Below are positions 27,708 to 37,968 of a stretch of DNA of 64,000 bases, piece after piece. Position 1 is the first letter of the stretch, and every line of letters starts with the position of its first letter. The notes under the pieces are model-generated. The model ran no database searches and was not told the origin of the DNA. It saw only the letters and a program-made list of their open reading frames with translations. Location of the stretch: positions 86,080 to 150,079 of IMG/VR virus record IMGVR_UViG_3300028048_000063; one strand, given 5' to 3'. A program made the translations under genes and the position numbers. This DNA comes from a virus. Taxonomy: Duplodnaviria > Caudoviricetes.

Positions 27708-30617
27708 ATGGCAGTAGTTCAAAATTTATATCAAGTTTATAAATTACCAGCTTCAATGTTGGTAAAAAATGACTGTAAGATAGACGATTACAGATTCTCC
27801 AAAGCTCTCAAAGAGGGCAATGTTGTTTCAATAGGAGATAATTTAGTCTTTCAACAGTTACGTTATATCCATGGCGATTATAGAAATCACACGGAGCTTT
27901 TTAATTATGTTACAAAATTAAGAAGTGTTATGCACAAATACAAAAAAGATGGCATGTTTAGAGAAGCTCGTGTTCTTAATCAAAGAATTTCAAAAGTATT
28001 ATTTGTACAAGACATAGTAAATGTTTATATTGATGGCAAAAAATCTGATTTCCACGCATTCAGAACTAAAGGTTTTGATTTAAATGGTATTCACTACGTA
28101 TATTTATGTAGTGGTAGCGGACAAATTCGTAGAAATACAGCTACATTTATTAATGAGAAATATAGAGACAGAGTCGTAAAAACATTAAACTGTGGATTAG
28201 ATGAAAAGACATCTGATTTTGTATTAGCTAAGTATAGTGCATATTTTGCACTAGCATTCTCTTCTATACTTTGGGTTAGAACACCTCGAGTTTGTGTCAT
28301 TAAGGATTTCTACAATACATTAAAACAAGAACCTGTAGATTTTATTTATCATGACGAAAATGATAGTGGAAAAGCTAAGATTGAAGAAAGAAAAATGGAC
28401 TTAGAATTAAACTGCGCCGATGGACAAGGATTAGTAGATCCAGAATTTGCTAAACTTTGGTCAGAGGATATGAAGCTAAAATATACACCTTGTTCTTTTG
28501 TTGTACGTTCTTGCTTCATTAAAGGTAATCTTGCAACATTTGATTTTAAAGCTTATGCTCATGAACACGGTATCACAACAATTAGAGACCGTTGGGGTAA
28601 GGTTTATAATATTGATGAAATAGACGTCCTTCTTTCCGAATCTCAATTTAAAACCTATAAGTATTATAGCAGTTGGCAAGAATACTGCGACTATACCACA
28701 AAAGGTAATATTCACTGGGGCGTAGCTCGTTATAATAAAATAGAAGATGAAGAATATGTTTTAGCAAATTATCAATACATTCAAGCATTATCTCTCGATA
28801 CAGAAGATATTCAAAAATTAATAGCTCCAACAGTAGAATGGATCAAACAAATTTGTTCTGGAGATCTTCTCTACGCCATGCTTTACGCATTTGGAACTAA
28901 ATCACAAAATGTTGAATATAATAATCTTTACGGATCTGCTAAAACAACAGCAATGCGTGCCTTAATAAAAAATGCTAATTTTTTAGACGATACTTATATC
29001 CAACAAAAACTCTATAAAAATATTACAGAGTCAATTAATCATGCAAAACTTGGTAAGATTTGGATCCGTGGTAATTATCAATTTATGGTCTCAGATCCTG
29101 TCGCACAATGTCAAGCCGCACTTGGACTTCCAGTCACAGGCGTCTTAAAACGTGACGAAGTATGGTCTGACTTCTGGACAAAACGTGAGGTCAAAAAACT
29201 CGACCTCTGCAGATCACCAATGATCGACGTCCACGAACACAATCCATGCACCGTTCATTACTCAGAAGAAGCTTCAAAATGGTTAAAGTATCTCACAAGT
29301 GGTATAGTATTCTCAATTTATGATACTTCAACATTTAGAGCTGAAGATGCAGACTTCGATGGTGATATAGTTCTATCAACAGATAACGAGTTTTTCCTTA
29401 AAGGAGCTCATAAAGATCATAATATCATTACATACGAGAAAGGTTTAGCAACCCCAGCAAAAATGACCGTAAATAACATAACTTCAACAGTTATGAAAGG
29501 ATTTGGTACAGGTGTTGGTGGATTCTCAAACACAGCAACAATTCTCTATGCAATGGCAGCAATCTTTAACAAACCAGGACATGAAGATCAATATAACGAG
29601 ATAATGACACGTATTAAACTTCTCCGTGAAATCGTGGGCCAAGAAATTGACCGTATTAAAGGCGCCGATAAACCATCACTCCCTCCAGAGTGGAAAAAAA
29701 TCGAAAAAATCGCCCCAAACGACTCACAAGACGAAGTCATACGCAAAATGCGCCGCAATGCGATGGTTGTATCTAAAAAACCATACTTCTTTAGATATCT
29801 CTATCCAGAGCTAAACGCACAATATAAACAATTTGAGTCATCATATAATCAAATTAGTCGTGACATGTTTGGTATAAAGTTTAAAAAACTTCTCATGAAG
29901 GAAAATAAAACCGAAGAAGAAAAAACTCTTATTCGTCGTTACCAAAAATATTCACCATTAATTACAGCACCTTGCACAATGAATAAACTCTGTAAAGAGT
30001 TTGAATCAATAGATTTCGATATAAAGTATGCACGTGATTTTTCTGGCGGGACAGGATCAAAAGATAAACACCCAGTTAAATCCATGCTTCCAACTTTTGA
30101 GTCGGAATTTGAACCAATATTTGATCAAACAAAACTAGATACAGTTCGTCAAATGTATCGCGGTTTTTCCGACAAAAAACAGATCAAACACCTATCAAAC
30201 ATACTCACTCAAAATCTTATTCAAGAGGATGAGTATCAAGAATATCGCTCAACAATCTATGACGAAATCCTCGAGCGCCTTAGACAACAAATGGTAGATG
30301 CGGACATATCCGATAAAGAGTTTTTATATTATTCTTATAAACTCTCTAAACTCTACGCCTCATTTAATTGGGGTTTTGTCTGGGAGGTTCTCGATGATCA
30401 TATCTTAACCTACATCCCTCAAGGACAAACATATTGCCCTGTTAAGGATCCAGATGGTGAATATTCATATCTCGGCAATACATATTCACTTAAAGACATA
30501 ACAAAATTTGATCTCTCAACAACAGAAGATACCGATTTTGATTACGAGATAGATTCTGATGAGTTTAACTTTACAACATTCGCCAACGGTTTTGACGAAG
30601 AAGAAGATTTTAATTAA
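27708..30617 (+). CDS. YonO-like single-subunit double-psi-barrel DNA-dependent RNA polymerase
   Basis: SGQIR, ADGQG, CRSP, catalytic DADFDGD, QEIDRIK, KKPYFFRY; SPbeta-like context. Confidence 0.88.
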   Translation: MAVVQNLYQVYKLPASMLVKNDCKIDDYRFSKALKEGNVVSIGDNLVFQQLRYIHGDYRNHTELFNYVTKLRSVMHKYKKDGMFREARVLNQRISKVLFVQDIVNVYIDGKKSDFHAFRTKGFDLNGIHYVYLCSGSGQIRRNTATFINEKYRDRVVKTLNCGLDEKTSDFVLAKYSAYFALAFSSILWVRTPRVCVIKDFYNTLKQEPVDFIYHDENDSGKAKIEERKMDLELNCADGQGLVDPEFAKLWSEDMKLKYTPCSFVVRSCFIKGNLATFDFKAYAHEHGITTIRDRWGKVYNIDEIDVLLSESQFKTYKYYSSWQEYCDYTTKGNIHWGVARYNKIEDEEYVLANYQYIQALSLDTEDIQKLIAPTVEWIKQICSGDLLYAMLYAFGTKSQNVEYNNLYGSAKTTAMRALIKNANFLDDTYIQQKLYKNITESINHAKLGKIWIRGNYQFMVSDPVAQCQAALGLPVTGVLKRDEVWSDFWTKREVKKLDLCRSPMIDVHEHNPCTVHYSEEASKWLKYLTSGIVFSIYDTSTFRAEDADFDGDIVLSTDNEFFLKGAHKDHNIITYEKGLATPAKMTVNNITSTVMKGFGTGVGGFSNTATILYAMAAIFNKPGHEDQYNEIMTRIKLLREIVGQEIDRIKGADKPSLPPEWKKIEKIAPNDSQDEVIRKMRRNAMVVSKKPYFFRYLYPELNAQYKQFESSYNQISRDMFGIKFKKLLMKENKTEEEKTLIRRYQKYSPLITAPCTMNKLCKEFESIDFDIKYARDFSGGTGSKDKHPVKSMLPTFESEFEPIFDQTKLDTVRQMYRGFSDKKQIKHLSNILTQNLIQEDEYQEYRSTIYDEILERLRQQMVDADISDKEFLYYSYKLSKLYASFNWGFVWEVLDDHILTYIPQGQTYCPVKDPDGEYSYLGNTYSLKDITKFDLSTTEDTDFDYEIDSDEFNFTTFANGFDEEEDFN

Positions 30618-32030: not shown

Positions 32031-32059
32031 TTGACGATTGTTTTATTATCCAGTATAAT
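32031..32059 (+). promoter_or_regulatory. sigmaA-type promoter (TATCCAG class)
   Basis: TTGACG-17-TATAAT with TATCCAG directly before the -10. Confidence 0.75.
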
Positions 32060-32150: not shown

Positions 32151-33800
32151 ATGGATACACAAGGAACAGTAAACGCATACGAATACGATCAAGCACAACA
32201 ACTCGATGAAATCATTTCCGAGGAGACAAAAACACCTCATACAGATTTCTTAACCGCAATGGCACGAGTTGCTGCCTTAAAGCGTACAGAAAACGGTGCT
32301 CCAGCATTATCCACATCTCTCTCTGCACTCTTAGATTTATTCGGAGAGATAGGTGCTCTCCGCTGTCGCTCAGAAGCAGATATTATTAGTCTCTTCCTCG
32401 CAGCATACGGCGAAGATAAAAACCTCGCTCTCAAAACACTCTTCTACGCAAGGGATATCCGTGGTTCTCAAGGTCTCGGTGAACGCCGCACTTTCCGTGT
32501 AATTCTCCGCTACCTCGCACTCAACCACCCAGATGACATAGCTCACCTCATTCCTCTAATTCCATTCTTTGGACGCTGGGATGATCTCTTTGTCCTCCTC
32601 GATACCCCTCTAGAAGATACAACTCTCGACTTGATCGCGGAGCAGTTTGAATCAGACCTCCAAAATCTCAATTCAAATCACCTCCAAAATATATCACTTT
32701 TAGCAAAGTGGTTGCCATCCGTGAATGCTTCCTCCAAGGCAACACGTGATACCGCAAAACACCTCCTAAAAAAAGGCTTACATCTTTCACAAAAAGACTA
32801 TCGCCATAAACTTTCTGCTCTTCGAGCTGCTCTCCGCGTGATAGAAAAACAAATGTCATCAAATAACTGGTCCGATATTAACTACGAATCAGTTCCATCA
32901 TACGCAGCACTTCGTTATAAACTAGCGTTCGCTCGTCATGACCAAGAACGTTATGAAGCTTATCTCGAAGCACTAATGCATGGCGAAGCAAAGATCCACG
33001 CAGATACCCTCTATCCTTATGATATCGTTCGTGATCTTTTTAGTGAGTCTTTCTGGAGTACAAACTTCACCGAAGATGCTATACAACTCGCCACAGCACA
33101 ACAACTTTGGAATGCACTTCCAAATTACCTCGCCGACACACCTAACGCCGATCAACGTTATCTCGTCATGGCAGATACCTCCGGCTCAATGTTTGACCGC
33201 GTTGGATCTATCTATAGATCTACATCTCTCGCCGTATATTTCGCCGAACGTACAACAGGGTACTTTGCAAATACATTCCTAACGTTTACCGACAAACCAA
33301 AACTCGTTAAACTATCTCCGGAACTTTCTCTTAAAGAGAAACTCCAAATAGTCCTTAACCCAGATTATGTCGGTTACTCAACAAACCTCGACCGCGCTTT
33401 CGCAACAGTCCTTGCCGCTGCCGTCGCTGCTAAAGTTCCTCAATCCGAACTTCCAACAGCTATCCTCGTAATCTCTGATATGGAAATCGACCAAGCCGTA
33501 GATTTCTACGATCACGCCGACAACCAGACCGAACAAGACGTGGATCCACGCTCGGCAACTTTCACAGAACGTTGGACACAAAAATTTGCAGAAGCAGGTT
33601 ATACCCTTCCAAATATCGTCTACTGGAACGTAAATGCACGTAACAATACATTCCACGCAACAGAAACAGATAACGTTCGCTTTGTCTCTGGTTCTTCCGC
33701 TGCAACTTTTACAACTCTCTGTAAAACAAACGGAGCAACCCCAACCGAAACAATGCTTGCAACTATCCTTGACGATAGATATAGAGATATACATATCTAG
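32151..33800 (+). CDS. DUF2828-type TROVE-like plus vWA domain protein (Ro60-like architecture)
   Basis: RTENGA, ARDIRG-GLGER, GRWDDL, AKWLPS; MIDAS DTSGSM, STNL, ISDME, YWNV. Confidence 0.85.
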   Translation: MDTQGTVNAYEYDQAQQLDEIISEETKTPHTDFLTAMARVAALKRTENGAPALSTSLSALLDLFGEIGALRCRSEADIISLFLAAYGEDKNLALKTLFYARDIRGSQGLGERRTFRVILRYLALNHPDDIAHLIPLIPFFGRWDDLFVLLDTPLEDTTLDLIAEQFESDLQNLNSNHLQNISLLAKWLPSVNASSKATRDTAKHLLKKGLHLSQKDYRHKLSALRAALRVIEKQMSSNNWSDINYESVPSYAALRYKLAFARHDQERYEAYLEALMHGEAKIHADTLYPYDIVRDLFSESFWSTNFTEDAIQLATAQQLWNALPNYLADTPNADQRYLVMADTSGSMFDRVGSIYRSTSLAVYFAERTTGYFANTFLTFTDKPKLVKLSPELSLKEKLQIVLNPDYVGYSTNLDRAFATVLAAAVAAKVPQSELPTAILVISDMEIDQAVDFYDHADNQTEQDVDPRSATFTERWTQKFAEAGYTLPNIVYWNVNARNNTFHATETDNVRFVSGSSAATFTTLCKTNGATPTETMLATILDDRYRDIHI

Positions 33801-33807
33801 AAAACGA

Positions 33808-33869
33808 TCGACGCATACAGCAGCTATTTAAAAGGAAGATCATTTTTAATAACTATAATACCGCGTCGA
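33808..33869 (+). ncRNA. Small stem-closed RNA-like unit 1 (Y-RNA-like candidate)
   Basis: TCGACGC/GCGTCGA terminal stem, ATACAGCA, AAGATCATTTTTA. Confidence 0.5.
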
Positions 33870-33881
33870 GATATATAAAGA

Positions 33882-33955
33882 AAGGCACACACAGCAATAT
33901 GATGTTAAAAGATCACTTTTAGAACCGCAATTTCTAATTCCCTCCATCGTGCCTT
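33882..33955 (+). ncRNA. Small stem-closed RNA-like unit 2 (Y-RNA-like candidate)
   Basis: AAGGCAC/GTGCCTT terminal stem, ACACAGCA, AAGATCACTTTTA. Confidence 0.5.
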
Positions 33956-33961
33956 GTTAAA

Positions 33962-33991
33962 ACTCCCTCACTTCGGTGGGGGTGTTTTTTT
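33962..33991 (+). terminator. Intrinsic terminator
   Basis: ACTCCCTCAC-TTCG-GTGGGGGTGT followed by a T tract. Confidence 0.8.
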
Positions 33992-34340
33992 ATACCCGCT
34001 TAGGTATAATTATATATATCTATATATGTGCGTATACCTGTACGGGTATATTTTTATATATATGTATCTGCATATATCTATATAGATCTGCATATAAACA
34101 GGCAATATATATGCATATGTCTACCTATATGTATATAGGGATATATATAAATACCCCCACCCCCTTTTTACCTGGAAAAGTAGATATTTGGATATAGAGA
34201 GAGGGACACGGATAGATAGAAAGATATAGGTCGGGTTCGATGGACAACGTCATACTATATATTTTAATTTTATTTTTTATTTTAAAAATGTAAATTACAT
34301 ATTTACATATATTTTATTTTGTTTAAGCGGAGGTAGCAAC
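33992..34340. other. AT-rich low-complexity junction (candidate genome end or replication origin)
   Basis: Many (TA)n runs and short palindromes, no credible ORF, C/G strand bias flips here. Confidence 0.4.
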
Positions 34341-34378
34341 CATGGCTATCTACTATCATTTAAAAATAGGTGATTTTT

Positions 34379-34819
34379 ATGTTTAATATGTTAAAAAAAC
34401 CTTATTATTTTGATTTAGACGGGGTTCTAGCGGATTTCAACGGCGAGATAAACGCCGTCGAGAGATTTGAACAAGAAAAAGATTTCTTTTTCAATCTCAA
34501 ACCAATAAAAAAGAATCTTGACGAAGTCAAAAAATTGATCAACAATAATAATATAGTTTATATTATTACAGCAAGTCCTAATGCAAGATGTGATAATGAT
34601 AAAGTTCATTGGCTCAGGAAATATCTTCCTGAAATCCAAAGAAAGAACATTATCATTCTCCGCAACGGACAAAGCAAAGTCAAATTCATGAGGAGCCGAC
34701 ATGGCATCCTTATGGATGACTACAGCAAAAATTGCCGCGAATGGATTACAAAACGTGGCAATACTAGTTGTAAAATAACTATTGAATTTGATGTTCAATA
34801 TTATTTAAAGCAACTTTAA
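34379..34819 (+). CDS. HAD-family 5'(3')-deoxyribonucleotidase-like protein
   Basis: FDLDGVLADF, ITAS, K-WL, LMDDY motifs; ATG at 34379 behind AGGTGA. Confidence 0.85.
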   Translation: MFNMLKKPYYFDLDGVLADFNGEINAVERFEQEKDFFFNLKPIKKNLDEVKKLINNNNIVYIITASPNARCDNDKVHWLRKYLPEIQRKNIIILRNGQSKVKFMRSRHGILMDDYSKNCREWITKRGNTSCKITIEFDVQYYLKQL

Positions 34820-34853
34820 AAGAGTGGTGGTGCAATTGCATCACCCTACTTTT

Positions 34854-36935
34854 ATGCCCACATAGGACACGTCCCTACGTGAAAGTCGTAGACGTGTGGG
34901 TGGATATAAGCGTAAGCTGAACCAACGTCCAAGTCGCGGTATTCCCGCGGTGTATACAAGCACGTATACACAAAGCGGGGTGCGATTACTGCGGCGTAGC
35001 ATAGCTTTTGCTGTGCGACTCCGGCGGAGTATAAACAGCCAACCCGGCAGGGTAAAATGTGGGGTAAGCGTCACCCCGAGAGCGCGCCGAACAGGTGTCG
35101 TTAGTTATGACGATACTGTAGTAGGACAATACCGCACTCTTCAACGACCTGTCTGGATCGATAGCCTAAGGGTTATTGTGAAAGATGGACTCACGAAAGC
35201 TAGTCTCCGGACTAGAGGAGTAGGAGTGTGAAAATAACTGTCGTCACGCGACTTATCATCGTTGTGACACGTCCTGGATAAGGGCCATAGGGATTGGCGA
35301 GATCTCTTGGGTTATCTATTCTATATATCAAATTCGTGTCGATATATAGACGTCATGTGCTAAAAGGCGATTGGCGAAAAGAATAGCGGCTATGCATTGG
35401 TCGTAAGGAGGAGTGAAAAAGAGACCCGAGACAGCGGTATCCAAAGTAACTCGGTCGCAACGCAGACAGTAGGGAAGGTAACAACCCTGTACAAGCTGAT
35501 AAGCGTCTTAGAATAGCGGCTGCATGAAAAGTGCGATGTAACGAGCAACCCCTTGATAAGGGGAGAGCAGGGAATAAGTGCTAGTGATCTAGATAGGTAA
35601 CTATCTGGATTGCATTACAGCCGAACTCTACTCTGCTTCCAAATCTGGTGGCGACACCAGTGAGTAGAAGTCTGTGTTACGCTCCTGAATAACGGGGAGG
35701 ATGGGACGATCTCCATCCGTATTACGAGTATCTCTCGGAGTACAATTCCTACACACCCAGAGCTGTCCTTGGTATGGGGGTGATGGGTAGGATCCCGGCA
35801 ACAGAACACAAAGGCAAACCCTGGAAGGCCAACGTTCCAGGTTATTGTCCGAATTAAATAACGAGTGGTGCAGCAGCAATGCACCAAAAGAAGAATGCGA
35901 CTGACTGTTTATCGGTTTGCAGGACGCTTTTGGCAAAAAAAGAGCACCCCGTGTAGGATGATTATAATGTCTATACCAAACGGTATGTCGGTGCAAGCTG
36001 ATGTATACGAGGAGATCGATAGACTAAAGGGGATTTCCACTAGAAGCCAAGCTCACCATGGCGCACAGGAGATTAGACCAGACTTGGGGAGGATAGATAC
36101 CCCGAGGCAACGTGTATCGCTACACGGAGCCCATCAACATATATGAGAATATATGTAACAGCGTATAATTTATTATATGTGAGCAGTAATGTGAGTGGAT
36201 GGGTGTTTAAATAACCGAATAAGTCACGCAGAGTAGGTATTAGGTACAAAAGAATGATAACCGATAGGTCTCAAAAGACAATAAGGTTTGATTCACCTAA
36301 TAGTGAACGGTGAGCGAAACGGCAGCGAGTAAGCTACTATATACAACAGCTTATATTGGTATCCCTAGTTTTCTAGGTGGTGCCGTATAGACGGGCGTAT
36401 TAAAGTGTAATCCGTAAGGATTGCTGTAGTAAGGTTATATAAGACTTTATGTCGAGATGTAACTGTAGCGTCCTCCGACCGCGGAGGAAGGGCGATAAGC
36501 CTAAAAGGGAAGCTTTGTCTAAGGATAGTTTATATATAAGGGTATGTCATACTCATCGAGTGCGCCGCAGTAATGTGGTAGTATCAACAACTATAGGTAA
36601 CTATAGCGGGGAGTATGAACTATCTGGACAAATGACGTGACCAACCAGCTGAATAGGTTAGGTGAGCCCCCTGGAGGGGCGGAAGAGACAAGAGCGAGTG
36701 AGTTAAGCAAGAAGTAGTGTAAAGTAGCGCTTGATGTTCGTCGTAACATCTTAACTAGGAGTGGCCGAGTAACTTCCTAGAGTGCAAAATATACTATGGA
36801 TTGCCGACTATAGGATCTCGTAACTCCAGACGCCTACATACCGTTCGTATGTATACTGCAATCGCAGGAGAGTTTGTGAATGATTGTTTAATGTGGCCAT
36901 GGACGGTGACAAGCCCGTGTAAACACAGAGTCAAA
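34854..36935 (+). ncRNA. Very large structured non-coding RNA region (candidate circularly permuted group II-like ribozyme or novel ornate RNA)
   Basis: About 2.1 kb without an SD-led ORF, GC-enriched, many hairpins with GNRA loops and G-U pairs that fit the + strand, long-range complementarities. Confidence 0.75.
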
Positions 36936-36966
36936 CAAAAAACTAAAACAAAAAAAGGAGAAAAAA

Positions 36967-37968
36967 ATGAGATTATTAGTGTTAAAGTGGTATGATACCA
37001 CAAAAGATGAAGAAGAAAAAGTAACTGCATTAAAAAATGCAGGCTTTAAAATCCTAGGTAAAGAAAATACCTTTGCCGAAGGCAGAAATTACAAAGTCGA
37101 ATTACCAAATGCGACTTTAGAAAACGAAAAAAAGACTTTTTATGAAGTTTTAAACGAGTTACAAACTCAAAAAGAAAAACAAGCAGCCCTTGCAAGAGCC
37201 GAAGCAGAAAAAAAAGCTGCTATCGAAAGAGCAAGAGTTGAAGCAGAAAAAGCAAAACAAATTGATTGGCTCCACAAAATAATTAAACCAGAAGAAACAT
37301 ACGAAATAAAATACACCTATATTGGTTGCCCAGATGGGTATAATGACGAATATAGAATGGATATCGGAAACATTCTTTCCGTATCCATTGGAGATCATTA
37401 TGATTGGGGAGCCATGGAAGGTGAGTTCCAAAACTTTACTTGTAAGGGTAAAGAGTTGCTCACCCAATTAAGACTCCATCATCAAGACAGATGGGACAAT
37501 GACAAAGAAGTCCAAGATTATATCATCGAATATATGATAAATGTATATATCCTTATCGGACTTCCAGGAAGTGGTAAAACTACAATAGCAAAAAAATACC
37601 ACTATAATGTGGTATCATCCGATGCAATAAGAAAAGAGCTATATGGCTCCGAAGAAGCCCAAGGTGATGGGCGTGTTGTATTCAAAACATTTTATGATAA
37701 AATGGAAAGAATACTATATAATGGCAGCAGTGTTGTTTGCGATGCTACAAACATTAGCATCAAAGCTAGAGCACAGGCAATTAACTGTGCAAAAAAATAC
37801 GGCACAAGAATTGTCGGTATATGGATCAAAAAAGATGCAGACACATGTATCGAGCAACAAAAAAACAGGGATAGACAAGTCCCTGTAGATGTCATAAAAA
37901 ATATGGAATCTCGCTTCGAAGTACCAACATTAGAAGAAGGATTCGATGATATAATTATCATAAGTTAA
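36967..37968 (+). CDS. Unknown N-terminal domain fused to an AAA_33/polynucleotide-kinase-like P-loop domain
   Basis: IGLPGSGKTT, SSDAIR, CDATN, R-R-VP motifs. Confidence 0.8.
   Translation: MRLLVLKWYDTTKDEEEKVTALKNAGFKILGKENTFAEGRNYKVELPNATLENEKKTFYEVLNELQTQKEKQAALARAEAEKKAAIERARVEAEKAKQIDWLHKIIKPEETYEIKYTYIGCPDGYNDEYRMDIGNILSVSIGDHYDWGAMEGEFQNFTCKGKELLTQLRLHHQDRWDNDKEVQDYIIEYMINVYILIGLPGSGKTTIAKKYHYNVVSSDAIRKELYGSEEAQGDGRVVFKTFYDKMERILYNGSSVVCDATNISIKARAQAINCAKKYGTRIVGIWIKKDADTCIEQQKNRDRQVPVDVIKNMESRFEVPTLEEGFDDIIIIS

Follow-up and report, generated by a model that had tools for sequence, protein, structure and literature searches.

What occupies about 2.1 kb without genes in the genome of an uncultured phage? 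The stretch lies in a 64-kb window (the whole stretch of DNA analysed here) that forms the end of a 150,079-bp IMG/VR virus record, complete according to CheckV. An NT5C-type 5' nucleotidase gene borders the gene-free stretch on the left and a kinase gene on the right. A first-pass annotation, made from the letters of the DNA, had proposed one giant structured non-coding RNA (ncRNA) or a co-transcribed array of several RNAs. We find that the stretch is a structured ncRNA on the + strand, which is real, conserved and at least 1.6 kb long, probably about 2.04 kb (candidate feature at 34854-36889, about 2036 nt, with a provisional 5' end and a 3' end taken from a predicted twister ribozyme site). 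The probability that it is a gene for a large folded ncRNA of an uncatalogued family, co-transcribed with the kinase gene and cut to about 2.0 kb by the twister, is put at roughly 0.7.

Coding capacity and composition

The NT5C-type gene (34370-34819, + strand; Pfam PF06941, E 9e-12) bounds the gene-free stretch on the left, and on the right the kinase gene begins at 36967, so that the ORF-less gap of about 2.1 kb reported in the first-pass annotation is indeed there. No credible open reading frame (ORF) was found at 34820-36966 under three genetic codes, the longest ORFs being of 111 amino acids on the + strand and 122 on the - strand. Reading TAG as glutamine or TGA as tryptophan opened no long + strand frame in the gap, the best + frame contains 32 stops in 694 codons, and translating the RNA region with stops read through gave neither a residual reading frame nor a protein-family signal. 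The stretch lacks coding capacity. It also differs in composition from its surroundings, with a G+C content of 46% against 35% in the flanks and an excess of purines (A.30, C.19, G.27 and T.23, versus A.38, C.18, G.17 and T.27 in the flanks). The G+C counts previously quoted per 60-nt line (33, 29 and 20, against 13 in the adjacent gene) were exact on recounting, and every other item that had been listed was present in the sequence where it had been placed.

Homologues of the RNA

The search for homologues took as query a translation of a single frame of the RNA across its stop codons (P0123), which was compared with 1.84 billion protein representatives. This returned three spurious ORFs made by gene callers: the window's own, one on contigs L128 and L129, and one on the JGI contig L130. 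The contigs L128 and L129 come from different ENA samples of metagenomic origin, were reached via the spurious ORF P0125 and match the segment 35129-36069 (+ strand) with 96.4% identity in blastn. The more divergent L130 is colinear with 35525-36701 (+ strand) at an overall identity of 61%; between the near-invariant blocks (35776-35810, 36077-36112 and 36536-36562), hairpins are missing, replaced or variable. This amounts to conservation in two or more further metagenomic lineages. None of the three contigs extends beyond the RNA, so they give no gene context. L128 and L129 both start at exactly the same base, corresponding to position 35129 of the window, which suggests a branch in the assembly graph and strain-variable sequence just upstream.

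The comparison with L130 does not show the codon-like conservation that would point to a protein gene. Mismatch rates at the three codon positions are 0.43, 0.42 and 0.34 (p 0.11), i.e. there is no codon periodicity, 21 of the 28 indels are not multiples of 3, and L130 has 14-23 stops in each frame.

Other routes did not extend this set. Neither the RNA nor L130 gave a blastn match among GenBank phages, and scans with pseudo-proteins from ORFs inside the RNA found none in viral, metagenome or genome contigs. Ten internal ORFs that were looked up exactly were not on record, and a second protein search with a word index added nothing new. Patterns built on the conserved blocks had 0 matches in viral contigs; one match in genome contigs, within a pseudouridine-synthase-like gene of a Parapedobacter metagenome-assembled genome, was judged to be due to chance. 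Small genes come after the genes for NT5C homologues of 53-60% identity, and scans of metagenome and viral contigs with the NT5C alignment yielded nothing useful. A gene with 74% identity to the NT5C gene, on the 570-nt contig L023, is followed by a hairpin and G+C-rich stem-loops. The last 100 nt of that contig (L023:471-570, including about 70 nt of the stem-loops) do not align to the 5' end of the RNA, and may represent a different or very divergent 5' domain.

Conserved structure

In an RNAalifold consensus of three sequences, 36 of the 181 pairs are changed on both sides. Column-shuffle controls, in which gap and identity patterns were kept, were made with the window and L130 only. Over the first 560 columns, the consensus energy is -104.8 kcal/mol compared with -52.1 +/- 6.1 in the shuffles (z ~ -8.6), and there are 27 compensatory pairs where the shuffles have 13 +/- 4 (maximum 22 of 40). 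The remaining columns reach -89.8 kcal/mol versus -52.5 +/- 6.6. A census of the whole alignment that does not depend on a fold counted 21 local helices of at least 5 bp with at least two compensatory pairs, while the shuffles gave 7.7, with a maximum of 14. The compensatory changes that the first-pass annotation had asked of homologues are thus present above controls. Judged from the alignment, the RNA is conserved with compensatory base changes over at least 35525-36701.

Several elements illustrate this (all on the + strand). A 13-bp hairpin with a GUAA loop at 35584-35613 has had its stem largely replaced in L130, with three pairs changed on both sides and three on one side, and carries a GCAA loop there. 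The nested stem domain at 35844-35962 comprises five helices, and L130 shows compensatory changes in every one of them: two double changes in each of 35844-50/35956-62, 35861-71/35944-52 and 35884-90/35927-33, two in 35896-900/35917-21 and one in 35904-07/35913-16. Next to it, the helix pairing 35969-35974 with 36019-36024 (35969-36024) has three compensatory pairs. The two adjacent hairpins at 36472-36502 (36472-76/36483-87 and 36490-93/36499-502) have three and two, respectively.

The strand is indicated by measures of different kinds. All five GNRA hairpins quoted in the first-pass annotation are present, and a count of GNRA-capped stems with 5 bp or more gives seven for the + strand and a single one for the - strand (0.65 +/- 0.8 in shuffles, at most 4 in 300). 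The first 1 kb folds with -359.8 kcal/mol on the + strand versus -305.2 on the - strand, 55 better, with z-scores of -6.8 and -3.4, and for the 2036 nt at 34854-36889 the difference amounts to 131 kcal/mol (-698 versus -567). The consensus energy of the window and L130 is likewise better by 52 kcal/mol on the + strand (-205 versus -153). The earlier assignment to the + strand is borne out by GNRA count, fold energy and consensus energy alike. Fold z-scores in sliding 300-nt segments did not separate the RNA from the coding flanks, and the apparent domain boundaries in its partition function were uninformative.

One RNA or several

The case for one giant fold had been built on a nest of long-range helices. 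The complementary segments are present as written, but they do not exceed chance: for the flagship helix (34985-34998 with 36561-36574), 15 of 200 dinucleotide shuffles reach its Watson-Crick core of 12 bp. This helix is moreover disfavoured, as its 3' arm does better as a local GNRA hairpin, in which L130 has GCAA in place of the loop GUAA and an A-U in place of a G.U pair in the stem. The helix proposed between 36051-36057 and 36309-36315 is contradicted by L130, where the partner is not complementary; 36051-36057 instead belongs, as loop and stem, to a local hairpin in which two pairs are compensatory. A complement that had itself been called weaker, CGTCCA with TGGACG, has its second member (36900-36905) inside the twister described below. 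The nest can thus not be upheld as an argument for a single fold. As a group, long-range helices are not significant (7, versus 2.9 in shuffles with a maximum of 8). Comparative support is found for only one of them, a candidate in which 35765-35772 pairs with 36519-36526 (both + strand) over a span of 750 nt: it has 8 bp, of which three are compensatory, is equalled in 7 of 150 column shuffles, which makes it borderline (p ~0.05), and flanks two of the most conserved blocks.

The rival reading that survives best is that of an array, in which the 2 kb would be co-transcribed as several structured RNAs of a few hundred nt each, processed apart or acting separately. Nearly all of the comparative support is for local or mid-range helices with a span below 250 nt, which together with the weakness of the long-range group agrees with an array, as does the loss of whole hairpin modules in L130 with neighbouring blocks undisturbed. 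The common break of L128 and L129, from two samples, at 35129 also hints at a variable junction upstream. Against this, the search for punctuation that would divide the stretch (internal terminators, promoters, ribozymes or tRNA-like elements) found none, the order of blocks is strictly colinear across 1.2 kb in a homologue of 61% identity, and one helix, the 750-nt candidate, has three compensatory pairs. One internal terminator candidate on the + strand, at 35820-35841, was rejected, its U-rich tail being lost in L130. Since no dividing element was found, a single transcript is favoured; a single RNA is probable, and we consider the array unlikely, while giving it some weight. The far-reaching version of the single-RNA reading is also tentative, and we rather doubt it. 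In that version the whole 2.04 kb would be one molecule that folds into a definite three-dimensional shape, and no structured RNA class known from phages or bacteria, rRNA apart, would be larger. Its own ribozyme would mature it, and it would serve phage RNA metabolism as an RNA machine or an RNA-only assembly, while the adjacent Ro60-like protein and polynucleotide kinase might handle its cyclic-phosphate end.

A twister ribozyme at the 3' end

No match was obtained anywhere in the 64-kb window with Rfam 15 at gathering thresholds. At permissive thresholds, the sole real match in the region was to the type-P1 twister, a self-cleaving ribozyme, at 36885-36937 on the + strand (RF03160, 45.3 bits, E 3e-8). 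The score is below the gathering score of 67.2 because the optional P3 stem is missing. The alignment produced by cmscan contains the core nucleotides of the class, namely UAA at the cleavage site, GC, CGGU..CAAGCCCG, GUAAA and GAG. The window element satisfies each helix, including the two pseudoknots T1 (GAC/GUC) and T2 (GC/GC); P1 is UUGUU/AACAA with one bulged A, P2 is UGUG/CACA and P4 is ACG/CGU.

A pattern search built on this core recovered 77 loci with the P3-less layout in viral contigs (L051-L127), which have the twister alone in common with the window. Among the 54 distinct copies that were aligned, 96.2% of the cells pair in a model made of P1, P2, P4, T1 and T2, and 11 of the 16 pairs show changes on both sides, with clear covariation in P1, P2, P4 and T1. 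The covariation score of 0.51 compares with 0.14 and was reached in 0 of 500 shuffles. All 23 invariant columns of this alignment are present in the window copy. At the level of sequence, these features identify the element as a type-P1 twister. Compared with the class, reportedly described by Roth and colleagues in 2014, it likewise has the invariant core, P1, P2, P4 and both pseudoknots, but it does without P3, falls below the Rfam threshold and accounts for just the last 53 nt of the feature, not for the 2-kb RNA itself. Members of the P3-less subfamily are mostly found in short gaps between protein genes. The other loci have at most 933 nt of ORF-free sequence upstream, which indicates that the 2-kb cargo is peculiar to the phage of the window.

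Cleavage is expected between U36889 and A36890, which we take from established knowledge of the class, and would leave a 2',3'-cyclic phosphate upstream and a 5'-OH downstream. The 3' end of the RNA is probably set by this cut, and it is because of the site that the end is placed at U36889. A comparable arrangement is that of ribozyme-processed tRNAs: theta and hepatitis delta virus (HDV)-like ribozymes have reportedly been found at tRNA 3' ends in phages by Kienbeck and colleagues in 2024. There, too, a ribozyme trims the 3' end of an ncRNA and parts it from the following sequence, but the ribozyme is of another class, and the cargo in the window is about 25 times larger than a tRNA.

The position of the twister bears on a second rival, according to which the stretch serves the kinase gene as a regulatory 5' leader, structured and of extreme length. 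The RNA is contiguous with the 5' untranslated region of this gene, on the same strand and with no terminator between them. Yet the twister would cut such a leader off the message 78 nt before the start codon, and this minimal ribozyme usually occupies short gaps separating protein genes. Homologues of the kinase found elsewhere lack a leader of this kind, and at 2 kb it would far exceed those known. A leader function is thus very improbable.

Relation to known RNA families

The search of Rfam with cmscan that the first-pass annotation had proposed thus matched no family besides the twister. The models of GOLLD, ROOL and OLE have no match in the region at the gathering threshold or at E values up to 10, nor in L128 or L130 at E up to 5. 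No tRNA was found in the window by ARAGORN, and there was no RF00005 match in the region at E up to 10; models of rRNA, group I and II introns and other ribozymes were likewise without a match there. The RNA belongs to a family absent from Rfam. It has the properties by which large ornate phage ncRNAs are recognised as a kind: a length above 500 nt, no ORF, and a secondary structure whose conservation shows in compensatory changes. The first-pass annotation had also called it larger than GOLLD, ROOL and OLE, and the conserved extent of at least 1.6 kb already is.

Could the stretch instead be a group II intron, either without an ORF or circularly permuted, or another known self-splicing or mobile ribozyme? 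An irregular hairpin capped by GAAA at 34867-34897 and a GUGCG at 34980 recall such elements, the size and G+C content would be compatible with one, and the absence of the RNA from related phages is as expected of a mobile element. However, no RF00029, group-II-D1D4, group I or other ribozyme match was found in the region (E up to 10) or in L128 and L130 (E up to 5), the two-nucleotide bulge of the 34867-34897 hairpin is on the 5' strand while that of group II domain 5 is on the 3' strand, and the element is intergenic and does not lie within an exon. We regard an intron as scarcely credible. Equally hard to credit, and already largely refuted, is the idea of foreign or decayed DNA devoid of function (a G+C-rich insert or what is left of a pseudogene): the nearest related phages do lack the region and its G+C content differs from that of the genome, but other lineages retain it at 96% and 61% identity, with compensatory changes preserving its stems, its GNRA loops and fold energy are strand-asymmetric, and its read-through translation holds no residual frame or protein-family signal.

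Proposed maturation and points against it

The favoured reading, that of a large ncRNA released by a twister, would work as follows. The RNA would be transcribed from the + strand together with the downstream kinase gene, starting near 34854. The twister at 36885-36937 would then cut the transcript between U36889 and A36890, freeing an RNA of about 2.0 kb that ends in a 2',3'-cyclic phosphate and leaving a kinase message with a 5'-OH. The whole 2 kb would be one molecule. As to its role, we suggest with low confidence, by analogy with what has been proposed for GOLLD and ROOL, that it may be a structural or scaffolding RNA during infection, forming an RNA-only assembly or a ribonucleoprotein; the Ro60-like RNA-binding protein and the polynucleotide-kinase-like enzyme encoded nearby are candidate partners, with equally low confidence.

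A number of observations weigh against this reading. No sigma-70-like promoter was found between the terminator-like hairpin at 34826-34845 and position 34900, in a scan whose scope excludes promoters of YonO-like polymerases. Only three lineages are known, and covariation comes from one divergent sequence (L130) in a sequence-only MAFFT alignment, L128 and L129 being near-identical to the window. Both ends, at 34854-35128 and 36702-36884, lie outside the coverage of the homologues. In the second half (36080-36740), the count of compensatory pairs is within shuffle noise (24 versus 20 +/- 4.5). A fold computed from the window only is modestly kept in L130, with 34 double changes versus about 19-21 when the partners are slid, and 102 pairs broken; such modest transfer is expected since it concerns a 1.2-kb minimum-energy fold and a sequence-only alignment, and it limits what can be said of the detailed architecture. 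Finally, the RNA is not a core gene of its clade, being missing from five phages that share the polymerase described below, which places it in a variable island.

Genomic setting

The phage encodes portal and terminase proteins, and its whole genome has a G+C content of 34%. A GGAG-type (Shine-Dalgarno-like) motif precedes 78% of the ORFs of at least 120 amino acids by 5-18 nt, against a background of 5% in the whole genome, and on account of this frequency the sequence suggests a host that uses Shine-Dalgarno sites.

Directly after the stop codon of the NT5C gene, a consensus scan found a terminator-like hairpin (34826-34845, + strand) followed by CTACTTTTAT, a weak T tract. It may mark where the upstream message ends, or act as a leaky terminator, and a comparable hairpin follows the NT5C gene of contig L023. 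Upstream of the NT5C gene, an AT-rich gap (34016-34086) contains a sub-threshold match to 'mir-297' (38.9 bits against a gathering score of 90) that is in all likelihood an artefact of simple repeats.

On the other side, the kinase gene (36967-37968, + strand) has its start codon 29 nt beyond the end of the twister and encodes an N-terminal domain without assignment followed by a polynucleotide-kinase-like P-loop kinase (Pfam AAA_33, KTI12). The product matches the PHROG polynucleotide kinase and RNA ligase-kinase families. Homologues of the protein have only the kinase half in common, and for the N-terminal domain an atlas search gave only weak ferredoxin/ACT-like matches. A gene for an HD protein lies further downstream, beyond the kinase. 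In two large phages with kinase homologues (loci L002 and L005), tRNA arrays occupy the gene gaps upstream of the kinase; they show no similarity to the RNA. The tRNAs of the window phage itself are only tRNA-Thr, -Ser and -Met, and its genetic code looks standard.

The gene for a Ro60-like DUF2828/vWA protein, labelled 'RNA-binding protein' in PHROG, lies 1 kb upstream of the RNA region. This gene (DUF2828 + DUF7788, Ro60/vWA-like; window 32151-33991, with the protein at 32151-33800) is served by a strong sigma-70-like promoter at 32031; its terminator is at 33965. The window also encodes a YonO-like single-subunit RNA polymerase of 969 amino acids (27708-30617; Pfam RdRP, PF05183; PHROG 8308), which is 69% identical in five other IMG/VR phages. 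BLAST and nhmmer found no match to the RNA in these five phages, and over the 10-kb loci that were compared, gene order is shared no further than the second gene after the polymerase.

Some related phages appear to recode stop codons. Reading through TAG lowers the ORF-free fraction from 15% to 2% in G001 (L008-L015) and from 10.5% to 2% in G002 (L043-L049), both of which have a tRNA with a CUA anticodon, and reading through TGA lowers it from 21.5% to 8% in G003 (L036-L042), where a tRNA with a UCA anticodon is present. A 'drum' RNA (RF02958, 46 bits) was seen inside the tRNA array of G001 (L014:1911-2029). A second ORF-poor stretch of the window phage, outside the window (G000:C1:3907-5251, or L132:1408-2752; 1.3 kb, 41% G+C), folds better on the - strand (-405 versus -364 kcal/mol); it has 28 versus 13 tetraloop hairpins, none of them GNRA-rich, and no Rfam match.

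Comparison with other large RNAs

The genes of GOLLD and ROOL adjoin tRNAs, and the few large RNAs whose structures have been solved (GOLLD, ROOL and OLE) form unexpected RNA-only assemblies. The RNA described here is likewise borne by a phage, free of protein-coding sequence, and rich in G+C and purines relative to the genome. Like GOLLD and ROOL, it is dense in hairpins, with conserved junction blocks and variable peripheral stems. Proximity to genes for tRNAs or RNA handling is also shared, in the form of the tRNA arrays upstream of the kinase in the kinase-homologue loci. It differs from both in having no sequence or structure match to either model, in its size (about 2.0 kb, of which at least 1.6 kb is conserved, compared with about 0.6-0.8 kb), and in a 3' end that is predicted to be defined by a self-cleaving ribozyme. 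GOLLD and ROOL, large ornate ncRNAs of phages and prophages that form Rfam families and have been studied by cryo-electron microscopy (cryo-EM; PMC12286853), thus appear to be the nearest functional analogues, set apart by size and maturation.

The gene neighbourhood invites a further comparison. Modules of Ro60/Rsr with Y RNAs, and RNA-repair operons containing them, are established in bacteria. The window likewise has a Ro60-like DUF2828/vWA protein upstream and a polynucleotide-kinase-like enzyme directly downstream, but Y RNAs are of about 100 nt whereas the RNA is of 2 kb.

Spurious ORFs that entered protein databases from gene callers led to the homologues of this RNA, and they offer a practical way to homologues of orphan RNAs. 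To our knowledge, large structured non-rRNA RNAs of bacteria and phages reach only about 0.8 kb, and this range would be widened by a conserved RNA of two to three times that size. The ribozyme-defined end would also make the native 3' terminus easy to produce in vitro, so that probing and cryo-EM could be applied to the RNA directly.

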